Positions 3,697-52,040 of a stretch of 64,000 nt of DNA are shown here, piece by piece. This DNA comes from Desulfurococcaceae archaeon (GTDB lineage Archaea > Thermoproteota > Thermoprotei_A > Sulfolobales > Desulfurococcaceae). The notes beneath the pieces were generated by a model that worked only from the letters and a program-made list of their open reading frames with translations, made no database searches and was not told the DNA's origin. Positions within the stretch are counted from its first letter, which is position 1. Every line of letters begins with the position of its first letter. Where the stretch lies: NCBI GenBank assembly GCA_028275705.1, contig JAPWUD010000004.1, positions 22,001 to 86,000 of the forward strand, written 5' to 3'. The translations under genes and the position numbers were made by a program.

Positions 3697-3799
3697 GGCC
3701 CGGGTAGCTCAGCCTGGATAGAGCGCCGGGCTGTGGATCCCTCGAGATGATGAGGGAGTAGAAACCCGGAGGTCCCGGGTTCAAATCCCGGCCCGGGCC
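3697..3799 (+). tRNA. tRNA-His (anticodon GTG) with encoded G-1 and a 27-nt intron (3737-3763) at the canonical 37/38 position
   Basis: Manual cloverleaf: G-1; acceptor GCCCGGG/CCCGGGC; D arm GCTC/GAGC; anticodon stem CCGGG/CCCGG; loop CT-GTG-G; T arm CCGGG-TTCAAAT-CCCGG; discriminator C pairs with G-1. The intron contains a TCCCTC/GAGGGA helix. Confidence 0.9.
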
Positions 3800-5162: not shown

Positions 5163-8100
5163 ATGAATAGACTCTACAGAGCTCTAATGGGAGTTTTAAT
5201 CACACTATACGTAGTTATACCATTATTCCTCAGCTTGGTTACTGCTGAGGCTCCATTATTTACACTCATTAATTACAATTACAAATCTAGTGCTGGAGAG
5301 GAGGAGATATATCCGGGGAGTAGAGACGTTGCATTAACAGTCAATGTAAAGTACATTGGAGACTCCCCAGTATATGTGTCAGCTGGGTGTATTCAACTCC
5401 CCGCGGGATTTACACCTAGTAGGGGGTATAGTGCTTGTACACCACCACAGACTCCTAATGGTACAACATACGATATAATACACACTAATGACGTAGTAGT
5501 ATTTAACTACCACTTAGATGTTAGTACTGATGTAGCGCCTGGATCATACGTATTAAGCTTAATAATATACTATAGGATGCAGAATGCATCAGGCAGTGAG
5601 GTTTTAAACAATATAGTGATAGAGGTCTCTAATTACCCAGAGCTCTCGCTCACGGTGACAAATTGGTATTGGAGCCCAGCGGGCTATCCTGGTAGTGATG
5701 GAGTCTACCTCTACGTTACACTGAGAAATACTGGGGGTTCAAGGATTCTAAATGCACGTAGTGAAGCAAGGTTTCCCGAGGATGTATTCTCGCCATCCAC
5801 TATTAGTTTTCAAATAGCTAATATTGGTGAAAATGAGTATGCAACTATTGGGTTAGGCCCTATATCAATATATCCATCTGCAAATCCCAATATAACGTAC
5901 CAAGTTCAACTAGATCTAAACGCGACTATGAGTACTAATGATGGCGTTCAATACTATGCCCAGGGTTCAATAGTCTTCAGCGTCTCTTTAACCCCTCCAC
6001 CTGTAATTCACTTAGAGGTAGTTGATTATGGATTAGAGACTCCGAGGCCTGTTGAGGGCTTGAGGCAAGCTAGATTCTACATGATGATTGTTAACAAAGA
6101 CTTCAAAACTATTAGGAGTGTTACAGCGTATTATTACATAGCTACATCAGGTGCGGTATTCGTCAATGGATCATCCTCCTCAGTATCCATATTCGAGGCT
6201 ACACTGGGATACGGAAATGCAGCATCCATATACTCAGAGCCCATAGTACTTGGTAGTGTACACCAATTAGTCATTAAGGTATCTCTACTTATTTTTGGAG
6301 ACGATAATGGAGCAGAGTTCTGGAGCACTATAAACTATGAATTTGCAGTGAGCATTGAAGAGCCTTTGGTAGACCTCGAAGCGGTTAATGTATACTGGTC
6401 TAGCGGGGGTGTTTACCCTGGCAGTGAAAATGCTGTTTTAAACACAGTGTTGTTGAACAATGACATTGTAGATGTAAGGGATGCAGTAGTATCAATTACA
6501 CTTCCAGAGGGGTTTTACCCAAGGTGCTTAACAGTTAGCAATGTATTAGTTCAAAGGGGCTCAATGACTACTGTATCATTTACTGGGATTTCAATAAGTA
6601 ATAGTACAATACCCGGAGAATACCCCGCGATCTTGGTAATTCAGGGTGTGGCATGGGATTCATCTACAAACACTTACTATGCATTTACAGCAAACTACAC
6701 GGTAACGGTTAATGTCAGTAAAACCCCGGTGTTTAAGATACTCACGGTTGCCACTAGTGGCTGGATTGGTGGAAGAGCATACACTATTAGTGTTAACGCT
6801 GCTTTCTACGCATACCTCCAGGTTACGGCTCCAGGTTATACTATACGTGGATTAAAGGTCAAGGCTAATCTCCCAGATCAACTCTTATTCACAAATGGCG
6901 AAAAATACAGTACTGTAACCCTTGGAAACATCTATAGATACGGTGACTTCATATATGTAGAGTTCGCAGGTGTAGATGTAGTCACCGATAAGAGTGGACC
7001 TGTCCCCGTAGTATTAGAGGTAGAGGGCTTAGCGTCGATTGGTGGGGATTACTGGTTTAGAGAATACCACACTATACTACTACCCATAATAGAGCCTGGT
7101 TTGAACTTAACACTAGTAGATGCGTCCTGGAGTGTAAACCCAGTTAGCAGTGAGGCTAGTGAACTAGGAGTGAGTATTACAATGCAGTCGACATCTATAG
7201 ACACCATTACTTCCATTACAGCTCGTTTAACCCTAACCAATGCAGTGTATAGTAGTGGCAGGGAGGAGGCCATTGTTAGTGTACAGAGGCCGGTGAACTA
7301 TGGCGAGGTCTTTACACTGGACTTTACAGGGGTGAATATAAATGCCACGGCTTTGAATGCTGTACTCGAAGTATACGCGGTTTTATCTACTGGTAGGTCT
7401 ATGTATTATAGGGCTGTGAGAGTGTATAATGTCTCCATGAATACTCTCACAGAGTTGAATGCCTTTAGGATTATTGGAGTACACACGATGATTGCTGGTT
7501 CTTACACGCCGCTACTTCCATCTAGTAGAGGGGTATCAATAGTGATCGAGCTAGCCAATAGCAAGCCATACCAAGTATCCTGGATTCAAGTTAATGCAAC
7601 TGCTCCAAGCGATGTAAAAATAAATGATATCTCAGGTACGTGTGTAAATGGTTTAACTCCCGCGGGAACATGCACAATCACTCTAAATGTCGATGTATCG
7701 CCAAATGCTACACCGGGATCTAGGAGTATTGAATTACTACTAAAGTACGCTGTTGCCACAGCACAAGGAGTCTCATTGTTTTCTGAGAGACACGTAGTGG
7801 ACTTTGCTATTGCAGATACTAAGTACTATGAGCCGGAATTAAAGCTTGTTTCAATGTACTGGGGTGTTCAAGCACCAATGAGGGTACTCGTAAGTCAGAG
7901 GAATGTACCATTAAGCATAGTGATCATCAATACAGGTTACTACTCATTAGATGGAGTTTACGTGTATGTTAAGCCTTTGAATAACACTGTACTCATGGTT
8001 ACTGACTCCTCAATGTGTACTCCGAGGTTGACAACCGGGGCTTCCTGTAGTGTAACACTATATACGGATCTATCCATGGTTGAGAAGCCTGGAGAGTTAT

Positions 8101-11080: not shown

Positions 11081-11336
11081 CTATAACTTTAACTCTATGA
11101 ATGACTGCTTCATAGTATACTTTAAACCCGGGTCCTCCCATGCCGGCTTCTCCACTATGAATAACTACTCGTGGTATATTAATAAAAAGTCTCTTTCTCT
11201 TAATCTACTCCACAATTCACGCGTAGTCTTCATTCTATGCTGGATCTTGACAACCTCCTCTCTCAGCATGAACCCAGCGTCTAGGAGTACGAGTAGAGCA
11301 TAGTGTGTTAATCGAGCATAGTGCTTCTTTACAACC
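11081..11336 (-). pseudogene. Gene remnant of unknown family (N-terminally truncated, one in-frame stop)
   Basis: The minus-strand frame reads SVVKKHYARLTHYALLVLLDAGFMLREEVVKIQHRMKTTRELWSRLRERDFLLIYHE*LFIVEKPAWEDPGLKYTMKQSFIELKL. It has no start codon and begins directly at the hairpin motif. Confidence 0.25.
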
Positions 11337-11367
11337 GAAAGCCTTGCTTTTTAAGGCGGGGAGGAGG
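11337..11367 (+). repeat. Short conserved hairpin motif GAAAGCCTYGC-TTTTTAA-GGCGGGG(AGGAGG), copy 1 of 3
   Basis: Similar sequences at 22650-22675 (same orientation) and 34064-34093 (reverse). 6-7 bp G/C stem with a T-rich loop. Confidence 0.4.
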
Positions 11368-11700: not shown

Positions 11701-12969
11701 TTATAGAGATTGGTCTGATTTAGCCGGATCTACCACGTGGCCTACGAATAGTATAGCTTTACTATCGCGGTCTCTAAGGATATAAATGAATGGCTTGTCT
11801 ACTACGACCTCTATGTTGTACACGGGTGCGGATGTAAGTACAAAGATCGCTGTTACAGCGGCTGCCTCAGTCCCCTTCTCATTTACCTTTATCACGGCTT
11901 TTTGAATTACCTTGTCAACCCATATACTGCCTCGAGCTACGCGCGCCATTCTCGTTAAATCGGCTATTCCAGGTTGGAATACTTCGTGTACCCCCATCTC
12001 CCATAAAACATCATTGAGAACTTTATTAAATGATACGTTGAATTTAGGCATTACGAGGTGTGCTCTGAGTATTGGACTAGCATTATCTATGTTTTCAAGG
12101 GCCTTTGTAACTAATTCCCTAACGTCTCCCACAGCCTCTTTGAAGTCTCTAGGCATTATGATCACCATTGATAAACTAGTGTCCTTGTAGGGGATCTCCA
12201 CAGCGATGTACTCGCTAGTATTCACTACTCTCAAGTGATCTCCTTCAACGTCCATACCATAAACATATATCCACTCATTTCCATTCCAGAATCTGATTTT
12301 TCCACATGGCTTGAACTCCTTTAACCAATCTGCCTTGAAGTAGATTGCTGAAACCAACACTGCAACTGTGTCGGGCGGCACTAGATCCCTGCTTAAGAGG
12401 TTCTTTATTAACCCATTTGTCTTCTCCTCAACCCATCTATTAACACTCTCAACTAACTCATCAATACTAGTAAAGTACTCTACGTATCCATTGAAGCACT
12501 GTTTAACCCTCGACACGTAATCATCCCTGAATGGAAATCCCTCCCTCAGCCACGCGCCATTAGCTACGTAGAGTGCGGCAGTGTTGTTTCTACCTATTGG
12601 AAGCATCGAGATCAATTCTCGGTATGCACTACAAGCATCTCCATTATCCAAGCCCATAACTTTACCAAGCTCCTCTCTAGTAGAGGTGTTTGTACCCTCA
12701 TATAGTATTGTTAGAGCAACGTAGATGTTGAAGGGTGAAACAACTAGGTTTTCACTGGAGTGATCTCTCAATAGTAAACCATATAGGTTGAGAGTGAAAT
12801 TATTCGCTTTTTCAACAAGTTGAGGTAGTGTTACTTCCTCTGCTTCAACTACACCACTCGGTGTATGTTGCTGAGGGGTTTTTCTCAGTAGGAATGGTAT
12901 AGAGACAACTGATAGGACAACTAATGCAACCACTAGAACTACAACAAACCAATACTTCAACGCCACCAC
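11701..12969 (-). CDS. Serpin (serine protease inhibitor) with N-terminal membrane anchor
   Basis: Hinge / reactive-centre loop EKGTEAAAVTAIFVLTSAP followed by VVDKPFIYILRD. Serpin-length core (422 aa). N-terminal TM VVVLVVALVVLSVVSIPFLL. Confidence 0.9.
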   Translation of the reverse strand: MVALKYWFVVVLVVALVVLSVVSIPFLLRKTPQQHTPSGVVEAEEVTLPQLVEKANNFTLNLYGLLLRDHSSENLVVSPFNIYVALTILYEGTNTSTREELGKVMGLDNGDACSAYRELISMLPIGRNNTAALYVANGAWLREGFPFRDDYVSRVKQCFNGYVEYFTSIDELVESVNRWVEEKTNGLIKNLLSRDLVPPDTVAVLVSAIYFKADWLKEFKPCGKIRFWNGNEWIYVYGMDVEGDHLRVVNTSEYIAVEIPYKDTSLSMVIIMPRDFKEAVGDVRELVTKALENIDNASPILRAHLVMPKFNVSFNKVLNDVLWEMGVHEVFQPGIADLTRMARVARGSIWVDKVIQKAVIKVNEKGTEAAAVTAIFVLTSAPVYNIEVVVDKPFIYILRDRDSKAILFVGHVVDPAKSDQSL

Positions 12970-13222
12970 CGTGAATATTCTCTCCCTATTGTTAAAAATA
13001 AATATAACACTTGGACAAGAGCGTCCGGGTTCTTGGACGAAGCAGTATTGCTAGAGATAATCACATTATAAATATGACCTCCTCCCCGCCACAAGTGACG
13101 AGGGTTCCAGTTGTAAAGGCTGGTTGGCTTAAGACAGGGAATATGTTGGTTGACGAGTTAGTAGTTGCTATAGTAATATCCAATAATATCTGCACTAATT
13201 CCCAATAGCGTTCTTTATGCCC

Positions 13223-22353: not shown

Positions 22354-23112
<759 letters not shown>

Positions 23113-31202: not shown

Positions 31203-31364
31203 GTAAAATCACCATTTTACTATATTCATTGCAAGGCAACTATAAACCCTCTTATTGCGAGAGAATAGTGGAGTTCAGTAAAGCTATATTGTTAGAGCGG
31301 TAGAGATCACTATAGCGGTGTTTTACGGGACATGCGTGGATTTATAGAATTAGAGTGTTTTAGT

Positions 31365-31690
31365 GGGGTTTGGGTTTCATTGGGCTTGATATCAAGCGAT
31401 ATCAAGCCCTCTTCCCTTGGCTTCACTGCCCTCGGGATCCCTTTTCATTGGGATCCATGTCACTGGGCTCCACCCGCTCTGGGTGACCCCGACCCACAGC
31501 TCCCCCTTCATTGTTTCCTCTGGGTCATTGCTGTGGGGAAACCCCCGCATCTTGGATTCCTCCCTCAAAACCCGCCTCTCTTGGGTCTTCACGATACACC
31601 CGCATCTCGAGGCGTCCCCCAGTAGAGGAAACATAAACAACCCTTATAAACCTCTATGAAAACAAAACAGTTGCAAAGGCGTGAAGTGCC
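31365..31690 (+). repeat. G+C-rich structured repeat, full-length copy A (candidate ncRNA / SINE-MITE-like element)
   Basis: Aligns along ~300 bp with 48655-48975 and with the reverse complement of 35593-35775. Perfect 12-bp hairpin at 31382-31409, GGATCC...GGATCC hairpin, CACCC-GCTCT-GGGTG hairpin at 31471-31485. Confidence 0.7.
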
Positions 31691-34063: not shown

Positions 34064-34200
34064 CCTCCTTCCGCTTAAAAAGCGAGGCTTCAGCTATAAA
34101 GGAATGCCTCCGTGAAACTGCTTTGGTTTTCATATAGATGTTTAAGGGTTGATATTAACTCTCTTATTTGGAAGCGGAAGTGCTGGGGCCGAGGAAGGTT
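34064..34200 (-). repeat. Tail fragment of the G+C-rich repeat plus hairpin motif copy 3
   Basis: The reverse complement of ~34100-34160 (CAACCCTTAAACATCTATATGAAAACCAAAGCAGTTTCA) aligns with the copy A tail (CAACCCTTATAAACCTCTATGAAAACAAAACAGTTGCA). The hairpin motif is at 34064-34093. Confidence 0.45.
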
Positions 34201-34250
34201 TGCGAGAGACTTGGTATTAGCTATCGCCAAACTACTGGTAGAGAAGAAAA

Positions 34251-34379
34251 ATGAGACCAATAGACGTCGCTAAACTACTGAGGGTACCCGAAGAGACACG
34301 TTGCAAAATAATAGATGAATTGATGAACATGGGAATAATCAAGAGAACAGGGAGAGGAAAATATGAGTGGTGGCGATGA
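34251..34379 (+). CDS. Possible 42-aa helix-turn-helix mini-protein (not in the ORF track, below its size cut-off)
   Basis: ATG-initiated frame MRPIDVAKLLRVPEETRCKIIDELMNMGIIKRTGRGKYEWWR. The pattern is HTH/wing-like. No further support. Confidence 0.25.
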   Translation: MRPIDVAKLLRVPEETRCKIIDELMNMGIIKRTGRGKYEWWR

Positions 34380-34715
34380 AAGCGTCTATCAAAGAGCAAA
34401 TAATCGAGACAAAACACATGACGCTACTGCAACTTATGGATTTGTAAAAGAAAGAAAAGCGAGAACAATCCAAGACAAGCACATATCATAGAAATAGAGG
34501 ATGAATACACATTAATAGAAGAGGACAATACATGCAATCTATAAACTCTAGAATAAACGCAGATTTGTACAATGTACAATCAATAATAGACCCCCAAGGG
34601 TTCGTCCATCTGCTATGTCCATGTTTAGGCGAATACGCACTTTTGCAGAGCACTTCAGAATTTTATGCGAGGAAAATATTTAGGATATTTTTGTTTATGT
34701 TAAAAATGTGGGATA

Positions 34716-35369
34716 ATGAGTTCAAGCCTTAAGCTTGTGTCTTTAGTTCTAGTAATAGCAATACTTTCCTTAGTCTTAGCTACATCTGCGATGCTGGAAA
34801 AACCTGAAACCAACACCAAGTTTATTAATGAGCGGGGGATCTTTTACGACGAGCTTCCCTTAAACCTAAGAATGATTCCCAAACCGGAGATTTCCATTAA
34901 TAACCGAGCACCCGATTTTCTCATAATATCTAGTACGAGATATGAGGAGTTGCTTGCTGCGGGAAAGTTGGGCCCAGTAAAGAATGTTTGGTTTGCAAAA
35001 GAAGCCCCTCAAGGAGCATCCATTAAAGATGGATCTGAGATGTGGGTTGTAATAGAGCCGTTGGTTATTACAGTACCTATATCCATCAATGGCACTCTCA
35101 TTCCTAGAACTTTCGACAGCTATGGTCCATATAGTTCCTGCTTATATGTATATGTTCAAGTAACGTGGTCTCCTGTTGACCAAATACTTGGTATTGCTCT
35201 AGAAGATATTGACGCTGGAGAGGGATACGGGTATTGGTTTACTGAGGGTTCAGCGTCGGCAGGCTTCTCAACAGATTGGCAGAGAAGGTATAACATCCTC
35301 ATTTTAAGCTATGCAGGTAATACTAAAATCCTCAACTATAATGGAACAATAACCCTTTATATCTGGTGA
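34716..35369 (+). CDS. Exported hypothetical protein
   Basis: 217-aa ORF with an N-terminal hydrophobic signal/anchor (LVSLVLVIAILSLVLATSA). No recognisable motif. Confidence 0.55.
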   Translation: MSSSLKLVSLVLVIAILSLVLATSAMLEKPETNTKFINERGIFYDELPLNLRMIPKPEISINNRAPDFLIISSTRYEELLAAGKLGPVKNVWFAKEAPQGASIKDGSEMWVVIEPLVITVPISINGTLIPRTFDSYGPYSSCLYVYVQVTWSPVDQILGIALEDIDAGEGYGYWFTEGSASAGFSTDWQRRYNILILSYAGNTKILNYNGTITLYIW

Positions 35370-35592
35370 CTTTCTTTTTAACCCAGGGGCTTTGCCCCTT
35401 CCTTAAGCGACAAATAACGCAACGATTTAGACATAAGGAACATTATTAATACACACTACTTGAAAAACAGGCCTTGTCTTGCAAATTTCATGTTGCTTGC
35501 CGTCACGCAGCTCATAGTGCTCGCACGTCCCATCTGCTCTTATATTATGGCTTGGTAGGCATCAATAAACATATGCCTAAAACACTCCTAGA

Positions 35593-35775
35593 CGCGAGGA
35601 TTGCCCCACAGCGATGACCCAGAGGAGGTAGTGAAGGGTGAGCCGTGGGTTGGGTTATCCCGAGCGGGTGGAGTCCTATGACATGGATCCTGGTGAGAGA
35701 GATCCCGAGGGCTGTGAAGCCAAGGGAAGAGGGCTTAACACCAAGCAATATCAAGTCCAATGAAACCCAAACCCC
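35593..35775 (-). repeat. G+C-rich structured repeat, 3'-truncated copy B (inverted relative to copies A and C)
   Basis: The reverse complement starts GGGGTTTGGGTTTCATTGGACTTGAT and aligns with copies A and C for ~180 bp. The small hairpin is degraded. Confidence 0.6.
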
Positions 35776-48342: not shown

Positions 48343-48654
48343 ATTTGTCCCCTATATATTTTAAGAAGTATTATTTAAAAAGCTTCACATGCTTGTCTAA
48401 CGCTGAGTAAAGTAACTATTTGTTCAAGCATTGCCTGGTAAATTACTAATATGTACACTGGGCCTCTTTACCACTCCTATTCTCCCAAGTAGAGGTCCTT
48501 GTGCATTGAGAGAACACACTATAATCAAAATACTTTAAACTTTCAATTTGATTTATTTAATGGAGATAGCAAAGAACCTGCATTTTATCGGTATCTGTTA
48601 TCTTTTCTTCAATGATGCCCACTATTTAAAACAACACATTATATACAAGTACAT

Positions 48655-48975
48655 GGGGTTTGGGTTTCATCGGACTTGATGCTGCTTGGGATTAAGCCCT
48701 CTCCCCTTGGCTTCACAGCCCACAGGATCCCTTTCACCTGGATCCATGTCACAGGGCTCTGCCCGCTCGGGGCAACCCCGACCCATAGCTCCCCCTTCAC
48801 TGCTTCCTCCGGGTCATCGCTGTGGGGAAACCCCCGCATCTTGACTCTCCCCAAACCCGCCTCTCTTGGGTCTTCACGATACACCTGCATCTCGAGGTGG
48901 CTTCCCAATAGAGGAAGCATCAACAATCCTTATAAACCTATATGAAACTCGACGCGGTTGCGAAGGGCATTAGAG
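48655..48975 (+). repeat. G+C-rich structured repeat, full-length copy C
   Basis: Colinear with copy A. The small hairpin carries a double compensatory change (TGCCC-GCTCG-GGGCA at 48760-48774 versus CACCC-GCTCT-GGGTG in A). Confidence 0.7.
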
Positions 48976-51134: not shown

Positions 51135-52040
51135 GTGCTTTGCTTGAGCCTCGCCGAGTTTAAGGAGAAGATTTTACATTTGCTAAGAGAAGATGAAGAG
51201 TTTAGAATGGCTGTAGCTGGCTTAATTGGGCTTGATGCAATTTTAAGCGAGCTTAGGAAGCTGCGCGAGGACTTCAATAAATTCGTGGAGTTGCAGGAGA
51301 AGAGGTGGGAGGAGGAAGTCAAAAAATGGGAAGAGCAGGCTAAAAGATGGGAGGAGAATAATAAACGCTGGGAGGAGCAAGCCAAGAGATGGGAGGAGGA
51401 GGCTAGGAGGTGGGAGGAGAACAATAAGAGATGGGAGGAAAACAATAGAAGGTGGGAGGAGCAAGCCAAGTGGTGGGAAGAGCAGACTAAAAGGTGGGAA
51501 GAGAACAATAGAAGGTGGGAGGAGAATAATAGGAGATGGGAAGAGAATAACAAGAGATGGAAGGAGGCATACAAGAGATTTGAAGTCATTGAGAGGAAGC
51601 TATTAGAGCACGATAAGAGATTTGAGGCCATAGAGAAGACTCTATTAAATCACACTCTGGTATTAGAAGACCTTGTGAAGAGGGTTTCTAGACTTGAGCT
51701 CGAAGTTGGGGCTCTCTCAGAGATCACTCTAACGAGGTATGTCTGGGATGATTTAAGGGAAGAGTTTAAACTAAGAGGTGAAGAAGTCGTTGAGAGAGTG
51801 AGGAATGCGAGAGTGAATGGACACGAGGTAGATCTACTCGTTGAGACAAACAAGAACATCTACATTGTCGAGGTAAAAATTAAGCCGACGAGGAAACACG
51901 TAGATAGTCTCCTAAGGAAGTCCAAAGCTACAATGGAGAAGTATGGTAAACCAGTAGTCCCAATACTAGCTGGCACAATGATAGGAAACGATGTCGAGGA
52001 GTACGCGGAGAGCAAGAATATCAAGGTATACAAATACTAG
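51135..52040 (+). CDS. Coiled-coil protein with Trp-heptad repeat array and C-terminal PD-(D/E)XK-type (DUF1626-like) domain
   Basis: N-terminal EEFRMAVAGLIGLDAILSELRKLRE, 13 x (xxK/R-R-W-E-E) heptads, C-terminal GHEVDLLVETNKNIYIVEVKIK nuclease-like motif. GTG start. Confidence 0.7.
   Translation: MLCLSLAEFKEKILHLLREDEEFRMAVAGLIGLDAILSELRKLREDFNKFVELQEKRWEEEVKKWEEQAKRWEENNKRWEEQAKRWEEEARRWEENNKRWEENNRRWEEQAKWWEEQTKRWEENNRRWEENNRRWEENNKRWKEAYKRFEVIERKLLEHDKRFEAIEKTLLNHTLVLEDLVKRVSRLELEVGALSEITLTRYVWDDLREEFKLRGEEVVERVRNARVNGHEVDLLVETNKNIYIVEVKIKPTRKHVDSLLRKSKATMEKYGKPVVPILAGTMIGNDVEEYAESKNIKVYKY
51294..51566 (+). repeat. 13 tandem 21-bp coding repeats (heptad QAKRWEE / NNKRWEE variants)
   Basis: Read directly: QEKRWEE EVKKWEE QAKRWEE NNKRWEE QAKRWEE EARRWEE NNKRWEE NNRRWEE QAKWWEE QTKRWEE NNRRWEE NNRRWEE NNKRWKE, followed by 4 degenerate heptads. 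Confidence 0.9.

Follow-up and report, generated by a model that had tools for sequence, protein, structure and literature searches.

G+C-rich repeats of a Desulfurococcaceae archaeon as IS607-derived mini-elements with a predicted TnpB guide-RNA scaffold

This study revealed that a family of G+C-rich repeats in a Desulfurococcaceae archaeon (contig JAPWUD010000004.1, positions 22,001 to 86,000; this 64-kb stretch is hereafter called the window, and its first letter is position 1) almost certainly consists of mini-elements that derive from insertion sequences (ISs) of the IS607 family and carry an omega-RNA module, the right-end guide RNA of TnpB. The copies in the window are referred to as A, B and C, and L-numbers designate loci from other assemblies or contigs. 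A and C are internal-deletion derivatives of about 315 bp, devoid of tnpA and of nearly all of tnpB, which retain the left-end promoter, a hairpin from the part of tnpB that encodes the zinc finger, and the whole scaffold as far as the right end. Overall, mini-elements of IS607 origin with a guide-RNA function constitute the best explanation of our results, with a probability of roughly 0.8. Their present-day use as guides by TnpB acting in trans, judged by analogy with known systems, is given about even odds. The repeats had been proposed, from the sequence of the window, to be a novel structured non-coding RNA (ncRNA) or an element resembling a short interspersed nuclear element (SINE) or a miniature inverted-repeat transposable element (MITE). 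They turned out to be structured RNA and MITE-like at once, while "SINE" found no support, and neither did "novel", because the module is the right-end, omega-RNA part of an IS607-family IS with an annotated relative in ISSis5 and a transcribed counterpart in RNA-257.

With regard to the copies themselves, the original prediction was largely accurate. A (31365-31690, plus strand) and C (48655-48975, plus strand) are indeed colinear, with 83.6% identity across 298 nt by blastn and alignment, and the inverted copy B (35586-35775) covers the first ~190 nt of the repeat at 81-84% identity. The tail fragment announced at ~34100-34200 is a left-end fragment of the repeat, detected by blastn at 34113-34151 (39 nt) and by nhmmer at 34110-34193; an nhmmer profile run over the whole window found A, B, C and this fragment, and no further copies. 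The sharp common start is also real, as the exact 16-mer GGGGTTTGGGTTTCAT opens all three copies (three matches against 0.41 expected, a count reached in 0 of 100 shuffles), and it corresponds to the right end of the element read backwards. On the tnpB-sense strand, which is the minus strand of the window for A and C, both copies begin with a left end of ~65 nt containing a TATA box, followed by a ~45-nt piece with homology to the first zinc-finger CxxC of TnpB, then a short linker and the final ~190 nt, which run up to the right end. In A, the TATA box GGTTTATAAGG lies ~30 nt upstream of the 5' hairpin. The box CCTTATAAACC, whose conservation had been noted, is conserved family-wide, is present in all left ends aligned, and is the tnpA promoter in the left end of full-length elements.

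The parent of these repeats was identified among their homologues. A scan of a genome collection with the bare 16-mer gave at least 118 matches, most of them by chance, and yet recovered true homologues in assemblies of Desulfurococcaceae, Ignisphaera, Zestosphaera and Sulfolobales, hot-spring archaea related to the Desulfurococcales-like organism of the window. A more specific metagenome scan added 115 loci. In L069, L074, L081 and L117, the ~190-nt module passes into a reading frame for TnpB, a zinc-finger protein encoded in reverse complement, and forms the 3' tail of an open reading frame (ORF) of ~420 aa, the stop codon of which lies 2-15 nt ahead of the right end, ...ATGAAACCCAAACCCC. 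The encoded protein, the TnpB of L074, contains a Cas12f1-like TNB domain (PF07282). Directly upstream of its gene lies tnpA, which encodes a protein of 200 aa with Pfam Resolvase and MerR/HTH_17 domains and a score of 232 bits against NCBIfam NF033518, "IS607 family transposase" (cutoff 110); the tnpA genes of L247 and L239 encode the same type of recombinase. A search for tnpB genes elsewhere whose ends or guide RNA match the repeats had been recommended, and these tnpB-carrying elements are what it returned. The left end of L074 reads GCC/TCCATGAAACTGCTTCGGTTTTCATATAGGTTTATAAGGG... (a slash marks an element border or an insertion point throughout), with the TATA box 35-42 nt upstream of the tnpA start codon, and is followed by tnpA (5551-6153), tnpB (6119-7435) and the right end, which terminates at 7447. 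The full element, an IS607-family IS of hyperthermophilic Crenarchaeota, thus measures ~1.95 kb and comprises a left end with a TATA box, a gene for a serine recombinase with an N-terminal MerR-type helix-turn-helix (HTH), tnpB, and the right end.

The distances between left and right ends fall into three clusters, of ~275-300 nt (the majority), ~1.3-1.4 kb and ~1.95 kb, which correspond to protein-less, tnpB-only and tnpA+tnpB elements, respectively (tblastn with the TnpA and TnpB of L074; 136 copies). The protein-less form is the commonest, being found at 39 of the 53 independent left-end junctions, and L031 represents a minimal version of 85 nt made of a left and a right end. The termini of the elements show no inverted repeats; a subterminal motif is nevertheless shared in inverted orientation, as GTTTYGGTTTTCAT in the left end and the reverse complement of GGTTTGGGTTTCAT in the right end. 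Homologues of the TnpB are numerous (275 proteins at E<=1e-30) and come from Desulfurococcaceae, Ignisphaera, Zestosphaera, Fervidicoccaceae and Sulfolobales. Among 32 sampled homologues, the RuvC residues D204 and E284 are invariant, and the third Asp (D360 of P0001) is kept in 25, whereas six homologues have Asn at this position and one has Gly. Some TnpB lineages may be nuclease-dead.

The borders of the elements could be defined by comparison with relatives, as had been suggested, through their empty sites, and no target duplication was observed in any of the three filled/empty comparisons. A strain with 97.1-97.7% identity to the window (JGI Ga0527077_0008, 1.5 Mb, and others) is devoid of A, B and C, and the alignments break at the predicted borders. 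At site C, the filled allele ...CTAATGCC(element...AAACCCC)ATGTAC... corresponds to ...CTAGTGCC/ATGTGC... in the empty one. At site A, the filled allele ...CACGCC(element)ACTAAAAC is matched by CACTCC/ACTAAAAC in several lineages and by CACACC/ in another, and at site B, the filled allele GGAATGCC(1,667 bp)AGTTGATTC is matched by GGAATGCT/AGTTGATTC. The flanks of the copies are unrelated to each other and share no common gene context, with the exception of a GCC at the left end. This GCC acts as the candidate transposon-adjacent motif (TAM), and its logo over the 53 independent junctions is HGCC: G at -3 in 51, C at -2 in 46 (some of the T counts at this position being registration artefacts), C at -1 in all 53, not G at -4, and A-rich at -5. 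Insertion occurs directly 3' of GCC and the element ends in CC, as would be expected if a serine recombinase crosses over at the dinucleotide CC. At site C, GCC is directly joined to the right flank in the empty allele, with the same TAM as in the filled allele; an alternative crossover, in which GCC would be part of the element and the core would lie 2 nt further left, fails at this site. The end of the element, CCCC, differs from the TAM, GCC, at position -3, a difference that has been proposed to prevent self-cleavage in the Clostridium botulinum element (PMC10690162). Mobility is also apparent in L225, where two 100%-identical copies occupy different sites of one contig.

Other routes to empty sites were uninformative. 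A joined-flank search of the fetched loci gave the self-match only, the contigs carrying the exact proteins of the window all break at the repeats and leave no empty site to be read, and site C lies in a different gene order in a third lineage. One mini-element, in L133 (reverse strand, right end at 12528), carries an inversion of the segment between its right end and an internal GCC, the junctions falling exactly at ...AAACCCC/TCTCTT and flank/GGCGTC; either a recombinase may have rearranged the DNA at a pseudo-target, or the metagenome assembly may be at fault.

The last ~250 nt of the elements, in tnpB sense, are predicted to be the omega-RNA scaffold of TnpB, with a conserved multi-helix fold. 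RNAalifold on 16 sequences gave central stem-loops with compensatory changes, after which a model of eight helices was fixed. It comprises P0, a 5' hairpin in the zinc-finger region; a closing helix, GGGGUUU/AAACCCC, in which the 5' part pairs with the final bases ahead of the guide; H1, H2b, the outer and inner parts of H3, and H5; and a terminal hairpin. In the 16 sequences, 85% of the cells are paired and 17 pairs have changed on both sides, a number not attained in any of 500 shuffles. An alignment of 31 non-redundant protein-less copies gave 91% pairing, compared with 30-51% for slid controls, and 76 double-change cells against 25.5 expected (0 of 500 shuffles). P0 illustrates this well, as the stem that encloses its conserved loop occurs as GCCCAC/GUGGGC, CGCCUC/GAGGCG, GAGCCCC/GGGGCUC, CAUCCAC/GUGGAUG, ACACCCC/GGGGUGU and AUGCCCC/GGGGCAU. 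The closing helix and H5 are invariant and are neither backed nor contradicted by covariation. The helices proposed beforehand, namely a 12-bp hairpin, a GGATCC hairpin, CACCC/GGGTG versus TGCCC/GGGCA, and CGCCTC/GAGGCG, all exist, and the covariation test that had been recommended on a larger alignment supports them through compensatory changes. A search of Rfam 15, which includes the RAGATH-18, HEARO and IS605-orfB motifs, gave no hit at the gathering threshold and nothing meaningful at E<=10 with either A or the full L074 element. The match to a described IS end that had been named as grounds for rejecting the prediction does exist in part, in the form of the annotated relative ISSis5, and no Rfam family was matched.

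The sequence of the module is under constraint in full-length elements too. The C-terminal ~25 residues of TnpB are encoded in two frames over the same conserved nucleotides, giving ...RDPEGSEAKGRGL... in some proteins and ...GAPRSMKPRVD... in others, which indicates that the constraint acts on the nucleic acid or RNA and not on the protein. The claim that the repeats are not coding was correct in that indels of 1 and 4 nt between copies disrupt any reading frame, and was incomplete in that, in full-length relatives, this stretch is shared with the 3' end of tnpB. A small protein gene, corresponding to the 82-97-aa ORFs inside the copies, has a negligible probability: ORFs of 80-97 aa do occur on both strands and the one on the minus strand resembles TnpB C-terminal tails, but these indels, the tails in two frames in intact TnpBs, and nucleotide conservation, which explains the resemblance, all stand against it.

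Omega RNAs in TnpB systems lie on the tnpB sense strand. The scaffold described here is placed likewise: it is on the sense strand of tnpB, overlaps the 3' end of this gene and stops at the right end. We infer transcription from the CCTTATAAACC side, that is, on the minus strand of the window for A and C, from the orientation of tnpB, the position of the left-end TATA box, and three internal helices, P0, H2b and inner H3, which favour the tnpB-sense strand (77 G-U against 19 A-C).

Several observations weigh against the interpretation of the repeats as guide-RNA mini-elements. The strand is not discriminated by folding energy (z = -3.5 in tnpB sense, -4.5 in the opposite sense) and, when all helices are summed, the two strands are equal (91.1% pairing in tnpB sense and 90.8% in the other). 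The terminal hairpin even favours the opposite strand (6 G-U against 58 A-C). The covariation could predate the mini-elements and stem from tnpB-linked masters, and is therefore no proof that the mini-elements themselves are under selection. Two of the three empty sites have TCC and GCT, not GCC, with the result that the crossover is fixed by the clean site C together with the logo. The scores of the TnpB proteins lie under the NCBIfam TnpB cutoffs. Finally, no tnpB or tnpA was found in the window, apart from a tnpA remnant of ~30 codons in B; the pair considered as a source was found only in a 97%-identical relative, and promoter use, RNA ends and guide of A and C are read from sequence. In favour of supply in trans, the 1.5-Mb contig of this relative on which the empty sites lie also carries a complete tnpA+tnpB element (L247), with the left end GCC/GTCGTGAAACTG..., the right end ...ATGAAACCCGAACCCC and a scaffold 86% identical to that of A. 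Two TnpB matches obtained in Logan come from samples other than that of the window.

The distal part of the terminal hairpin (31382-31409 in A and its equivalents) is a direct repeat, AYATCAA...AYATCAA, an inverted copy of which, TTGTTGATG, is present in the left end. By analogy, this arrangement probably reflects a constraint at the DNA level, namely binding sites for TnpA, as the ends of IS607 carry such sites (PMC4058570, PMC6188088).

The mechanism that we propose follows the known IS607/TnpB scheme (PMC10690162). TnpA provided in trans would excise and insert the mini-elements. The left-end promoter would transcribe the scaffold and read out into the flank, the predicted omega RNA passing the right end ...CCCAAACCCC. 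Each copy would thereby yield an omega RNA whose guide, of ~16-20 nt, would be the DNA adjoining its own right end. TnpB, also in trans, would cut the vacant site (GCC plus flank) after excision or on sister chromosomes, and recombinational repair would restore the element.

This family shares with bacterial IS607 and with the C. botulinum IStron (PMC10690162, PMC6188088, PMC4058570) a serine-recombinase TnpA with an N-terminal HTH, tnpB, and the lack of target duplication. It also shares a presumed crossover dinucleotide found at both ends and in the target, a scaffold that overlaps the 3' end of tnpB and stops at the right end, and the identity of the last two scaffold nucleotides with the last two of the TAM combined with a difference at -3 (GCC versus CCCC here, TGGG versus UCGG in C. 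botulinum). In contrast, the TAM and core, in tnpB sense, are GCC and CC, whereas the bacterial equivalents are TGGG and GG, with a scaffold ending in UCGG (PMC10690162). The hosts are hyperthermophilic archaea, the family has no Rfam model, its TnpB is divergent, and the system is known here from its sequence only. The closest annotated relatives belong to the ISSis5/ISC1904 group of Sulfolobales (pYN01 of S. islandicus Y.N.15.51), which has homologous ends, GCC/GTCGTCAACAGTTTCCG...TATA on the left and ...GTGAAGCCCAAGG...ATGAAGCCCAAACCCC on the right, and a TnpB with 40% identity over 96% of the length. Nevertheless, ISSis5 represents a separate lineage, with ~40% protein identity and one base different in the 16-nt right-end motif, and the window holds only protein-less or degenerate derivatives. 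The family also resembles the PATEs, protein-less IS200/IS605 elements (Meers et al., PMC10055086), which have both ends and an omega RNA, encode no proteins, and depend on TnpA and TnpB in trans. PATEs, however, move as single strands by means of a Y1 (HUH) transposase and hairpin ends, whereas the present family belongs to the serine-recombinase branch, and its RNA lies downstream of the tnpA promoter. Classical MITEs such as SM1-SM4 of Sulfolobus are likewise short, multi-copy, non-coding deletion derivatives of ISs, but the present family has neither terminal inverted repeats nor target duplication and is not a MITE in the strict sense; it is MITE-like only as short multi-copy deletion derivatives. 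No match to copy A was obtained by blastn in plasmid and phage collections.

The nearest experimental counterpart is formed by the RNA-257 paralogs of S. solfataricus (RNA-257, -107, -91 and -20), which are transcribed, intergenic, equipped with their own promoter, and homologous to the distal part of ISC1904 orfB (Tang 2005; Martens 2013, PMC3674436). The published reverse primer of RNA-257, CTTAGTGGGTTTGGGCTTCA, is the complement of UGAAGCCCAAACCCA plus five bases of flank and reads, on the tnpB-sense strand, ...TGAAGCCCAAACCCA+CTAAG, from the right-end motif into the flank. The primer spans motif and flank, which implies that the RNA runs through the right end into the flank. The likeness to the copies in the window was established through this primer and ISSis5, not through a full alignment. 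In their original description, these RNAs figure as remnants whose promoters were newly created and as regulators acting in antisense, and neither as mobile mini-elements bounded by a left and a right end nor as TnpB guides (PMC3674436).

RNA-257 also serves as a precedent for a different function. Mini-elements could be mobile promoter or antisense-RNA cassettes, in which the left-end promoter drives a stable RNA into neighbouring genes, or one that pairs with complementary transposon-end mRNAs, independently of TnpB. RNA-257 has been reported to act on the 3' untranslated region of ORF 1183 in S. solfataricus (PMC3674436); in the window, A and C face the starts of downstream genes on the same strand (DHDPS at 163 nt and an amino-acid permease at 313 nt), and B reads antisense into the 3' end of an EamA gene. 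Yet the antisense model covers one locus in one species, the insertion flanks are unrelated and lack a common gene context, and the full scaffold is kept, including helices of the type found in nuclease-bound guides, which exceeds the needs of a promoter cassette. We consider such cassettes unlikely.

A similarly low probability is assigned to inert relics, that is, dead deletion products that once hitch-hiked on TnpA and merely inherited their structure. The 84% identity of A and C, the degeneration of B, the lack of tnpA and tnpB in the window, and the TnpB homologues with Asn at the third RuvC position are all compatible with relics. Dead products would not be expected, however, to show the same architecture at 39 independent sites as the commonest form of the family, to occur as 100%-identical copies at two sites, to differ in presence between 97%-identical strains, or to keep the TATA box and 91% of the base pairs in an alignment of mini-elements alone.

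With regard to the guide-RNA reading itself, one extension was considered, in which the mini-elements are self-promoted guide-RNA satellites that borrow TnpB in trans to police their insertion sites, with the resulting pressure visible at vacant sites. If only empty sites immune to cleavage persist, differences in the TAM or seed would be expected. All three vacant sites of sister strains (L241-L246 and L248-L253) do differ from the filled ones: at A (31678-31680), GCC has become TCC in three lineages and ACC in a fourth; at B (34106-34108), GCT replaces GCC; and at C (target at 48635-48654), there are three changes in the first 10 target bases. The -3 base of site A has three states across lineages. 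With an intergenic divergence of 5-12%, however, the two TAM changes have only roughly p~0.03. These differences are only suggestive of selection, and the extension must be regarded as speculative and rather improbable.

Far less probable is a chromosomal family of ncRNA genes unrelated to transposition, with their own TATA box on the GGGG side. A TATA-like box ~25 nt upstream of the GGGG had been pointed out, and A+T-rich TATA-like words are indeed found there in the three copies of the window, the plus strand of which folds well. Nevertheless, in 93 independent flanks neither TATA-like words nor A+T are enriched at any position, and the reading is in practice refuted by two further findings: the module physically ends tnpB elements, and a near-identical strain lacks the insertions. 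Coding, CRISPR-leader and SINE readings were rejected on the grounds of broken frames, no adjacent repeat array and no retro-element signature, respectively; the SINE reading is further contradicted by the lack of a tRNA-like part (the only Rfam/tRNA scan match being at 3698-3799), the lack of duplication, and the DNA-transposon parent.

The third copy, B, is part of a longer degenerate element, which appears to be an IS607-derived shell carrying cargo (Table 1). Its middle part is unrelated, non-transposon DNA, which may lie inside the mobile unit or be a later entrant. The 5' hairpin is missing and the 5' strand of the closing helix is substituted, and B is probably a decayed, inactive copy with foreign cargo and a damaged scaffold. 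A left-end-like sequence just past its right end was too weak to be retained (~65% identity outside the self-match). At a position corresponding to 35396 of the window, a 98%-identical strain (L164, 1284-1511) has an extra G+C-rich insertion of 227 nt, right after GCC (...GGGGCTTTGCC/CCTTCC...), which holds GGGTTTATAAG and a stretch ...CCCCCAAAAAACCCTAACCC... and has no second copy in the fetched data; it may represent a further small element that targets similar sites.

Table 1. Elements related to the IS607 family in the window, with their component parts
Feature	Position	Strand	Basis or remarks
Copy A, protein-less IS607-family derivative of ~313 bp (left end, zinc-finger hairpin, omega-RNA scaffold, right end)	31365..31677	-	blastn/nhmmer; aligned with L074 and 40+ elements of the same architecture; absent from L242 exactly at these borders
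GCC abutting the left end of A: target-derived TAM, CC being the presumed crossover dinucleotide	31678..31680	-	logo; empty sites TCC or ACC
Predicted omega-RNA scaffold of A, eight helices (5' hairpin P0, closing helix, H1, H2b, H3 outer and inner, H5, terminal hairpin)	31365..31614	-	covariation; minimum free energy -99.8 kcal/mol, z = -3.5
TATA box of A, tnpA promoter in full-length elements	31642..31652	-	conserved in all left ends
Predicted guide of A, ACUAAAACACUCUAAUUCUA, DNA flanking the right end	31345..31364	-	inferred from TnpB systems (PMC8612924, PMC10690162)
Copy C, protein-less, architecture as A	48655..48965	-	scaffold 48655-48899; TATA box 48928-48938; absent in relatives L248-L251
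GCC TAM abutting the left end of C	48966..48968	-	empty site of relatives: GCC joined straight to right flank
Element B, degenerate, 1,667 bp	34109..35775	+	tblastn with TnpA and TnpB of L074, nhmmer, sequence; missing from L242
GCC TAM of element B	34106-34108	+	
B, left end and first ~30 codons of tnpA	34109-34245		tblastn; tnpA remnant 34153-34245
B, middle part, ~1.3 kb	34246-35558		
B, cargo ORF of 42 aa	34251-34379		weak DUF4423/winged-HTH-like match
B, cargo ORF of 217 aa, N-terminal hydrophobic segment	34716-35369		no Pfam match
B, tnpB tail/partial omega scaffold and right end	35559-35775		

Other repeats were noted in the window. The segment at 22650-22910, previously taken for a diverged copy of the family, gave no blastn match to it at word size 7 and no nhmmer match at E<=10. 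It corresponds to a separate element of ~265 bp (22641-22906) with terminal inverted repeats of ~35-40 nt (ACAACYGAAAGCC...TTAAGGCGGGG), which splits a small ORF starting at 22442, interrupted at 22651 and resuming after ~22907; an 83%-identical copy of 270 nt is present in L216, and matches to its terminal repeats occur in many loci. Inverted repeats of 41 nt akin to those of this element, at 11327-11367 and 13078-13118, bracket a segment of 1.8 kb, the only long ORF of which (11701-12969, minus strand) encodes a serpin (PF00079, 278 bits) and not a transposase. This segment may be a composite or a captured gene. A tandem array of 21-nt units (51261-51621; about 12 or more copies at 63-77% identity) has similar counterparts in L143 and L249, and the tRNA match at 3698-3799 spans 102 nt for a model of 71 positions, which implies an intron and agrees with an archaeal origin.

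Taken together, what is new here is the lineage, the structure model, the GCC rule, the dominance of the mini form made of promoter and guide, and the re-reading of RNA-257. G+C-rich repeats of hyperthermophiles that had been left blank or annotated with spurious ORFs are now explained, and an archaeal IS607-type omega RNA without an Rfam model has received a structure supported by covariation. A short TAM of the G/C type, GCC, is predicted for a thermostable TnpB lineage, which may be of interest for genome editing. The "transposon-derived antisense RNAs" of the RNA-257 group in Sulfolobus can be reread as orphan TnpB guide RNAs. With the clean pairs of filled and empty sites, transposition by serine recombinases and retention guided by RNA can be studied in nature. 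The protein-less form consisting of a promoter and a guide outnumbers the autonomous element in these archaea.

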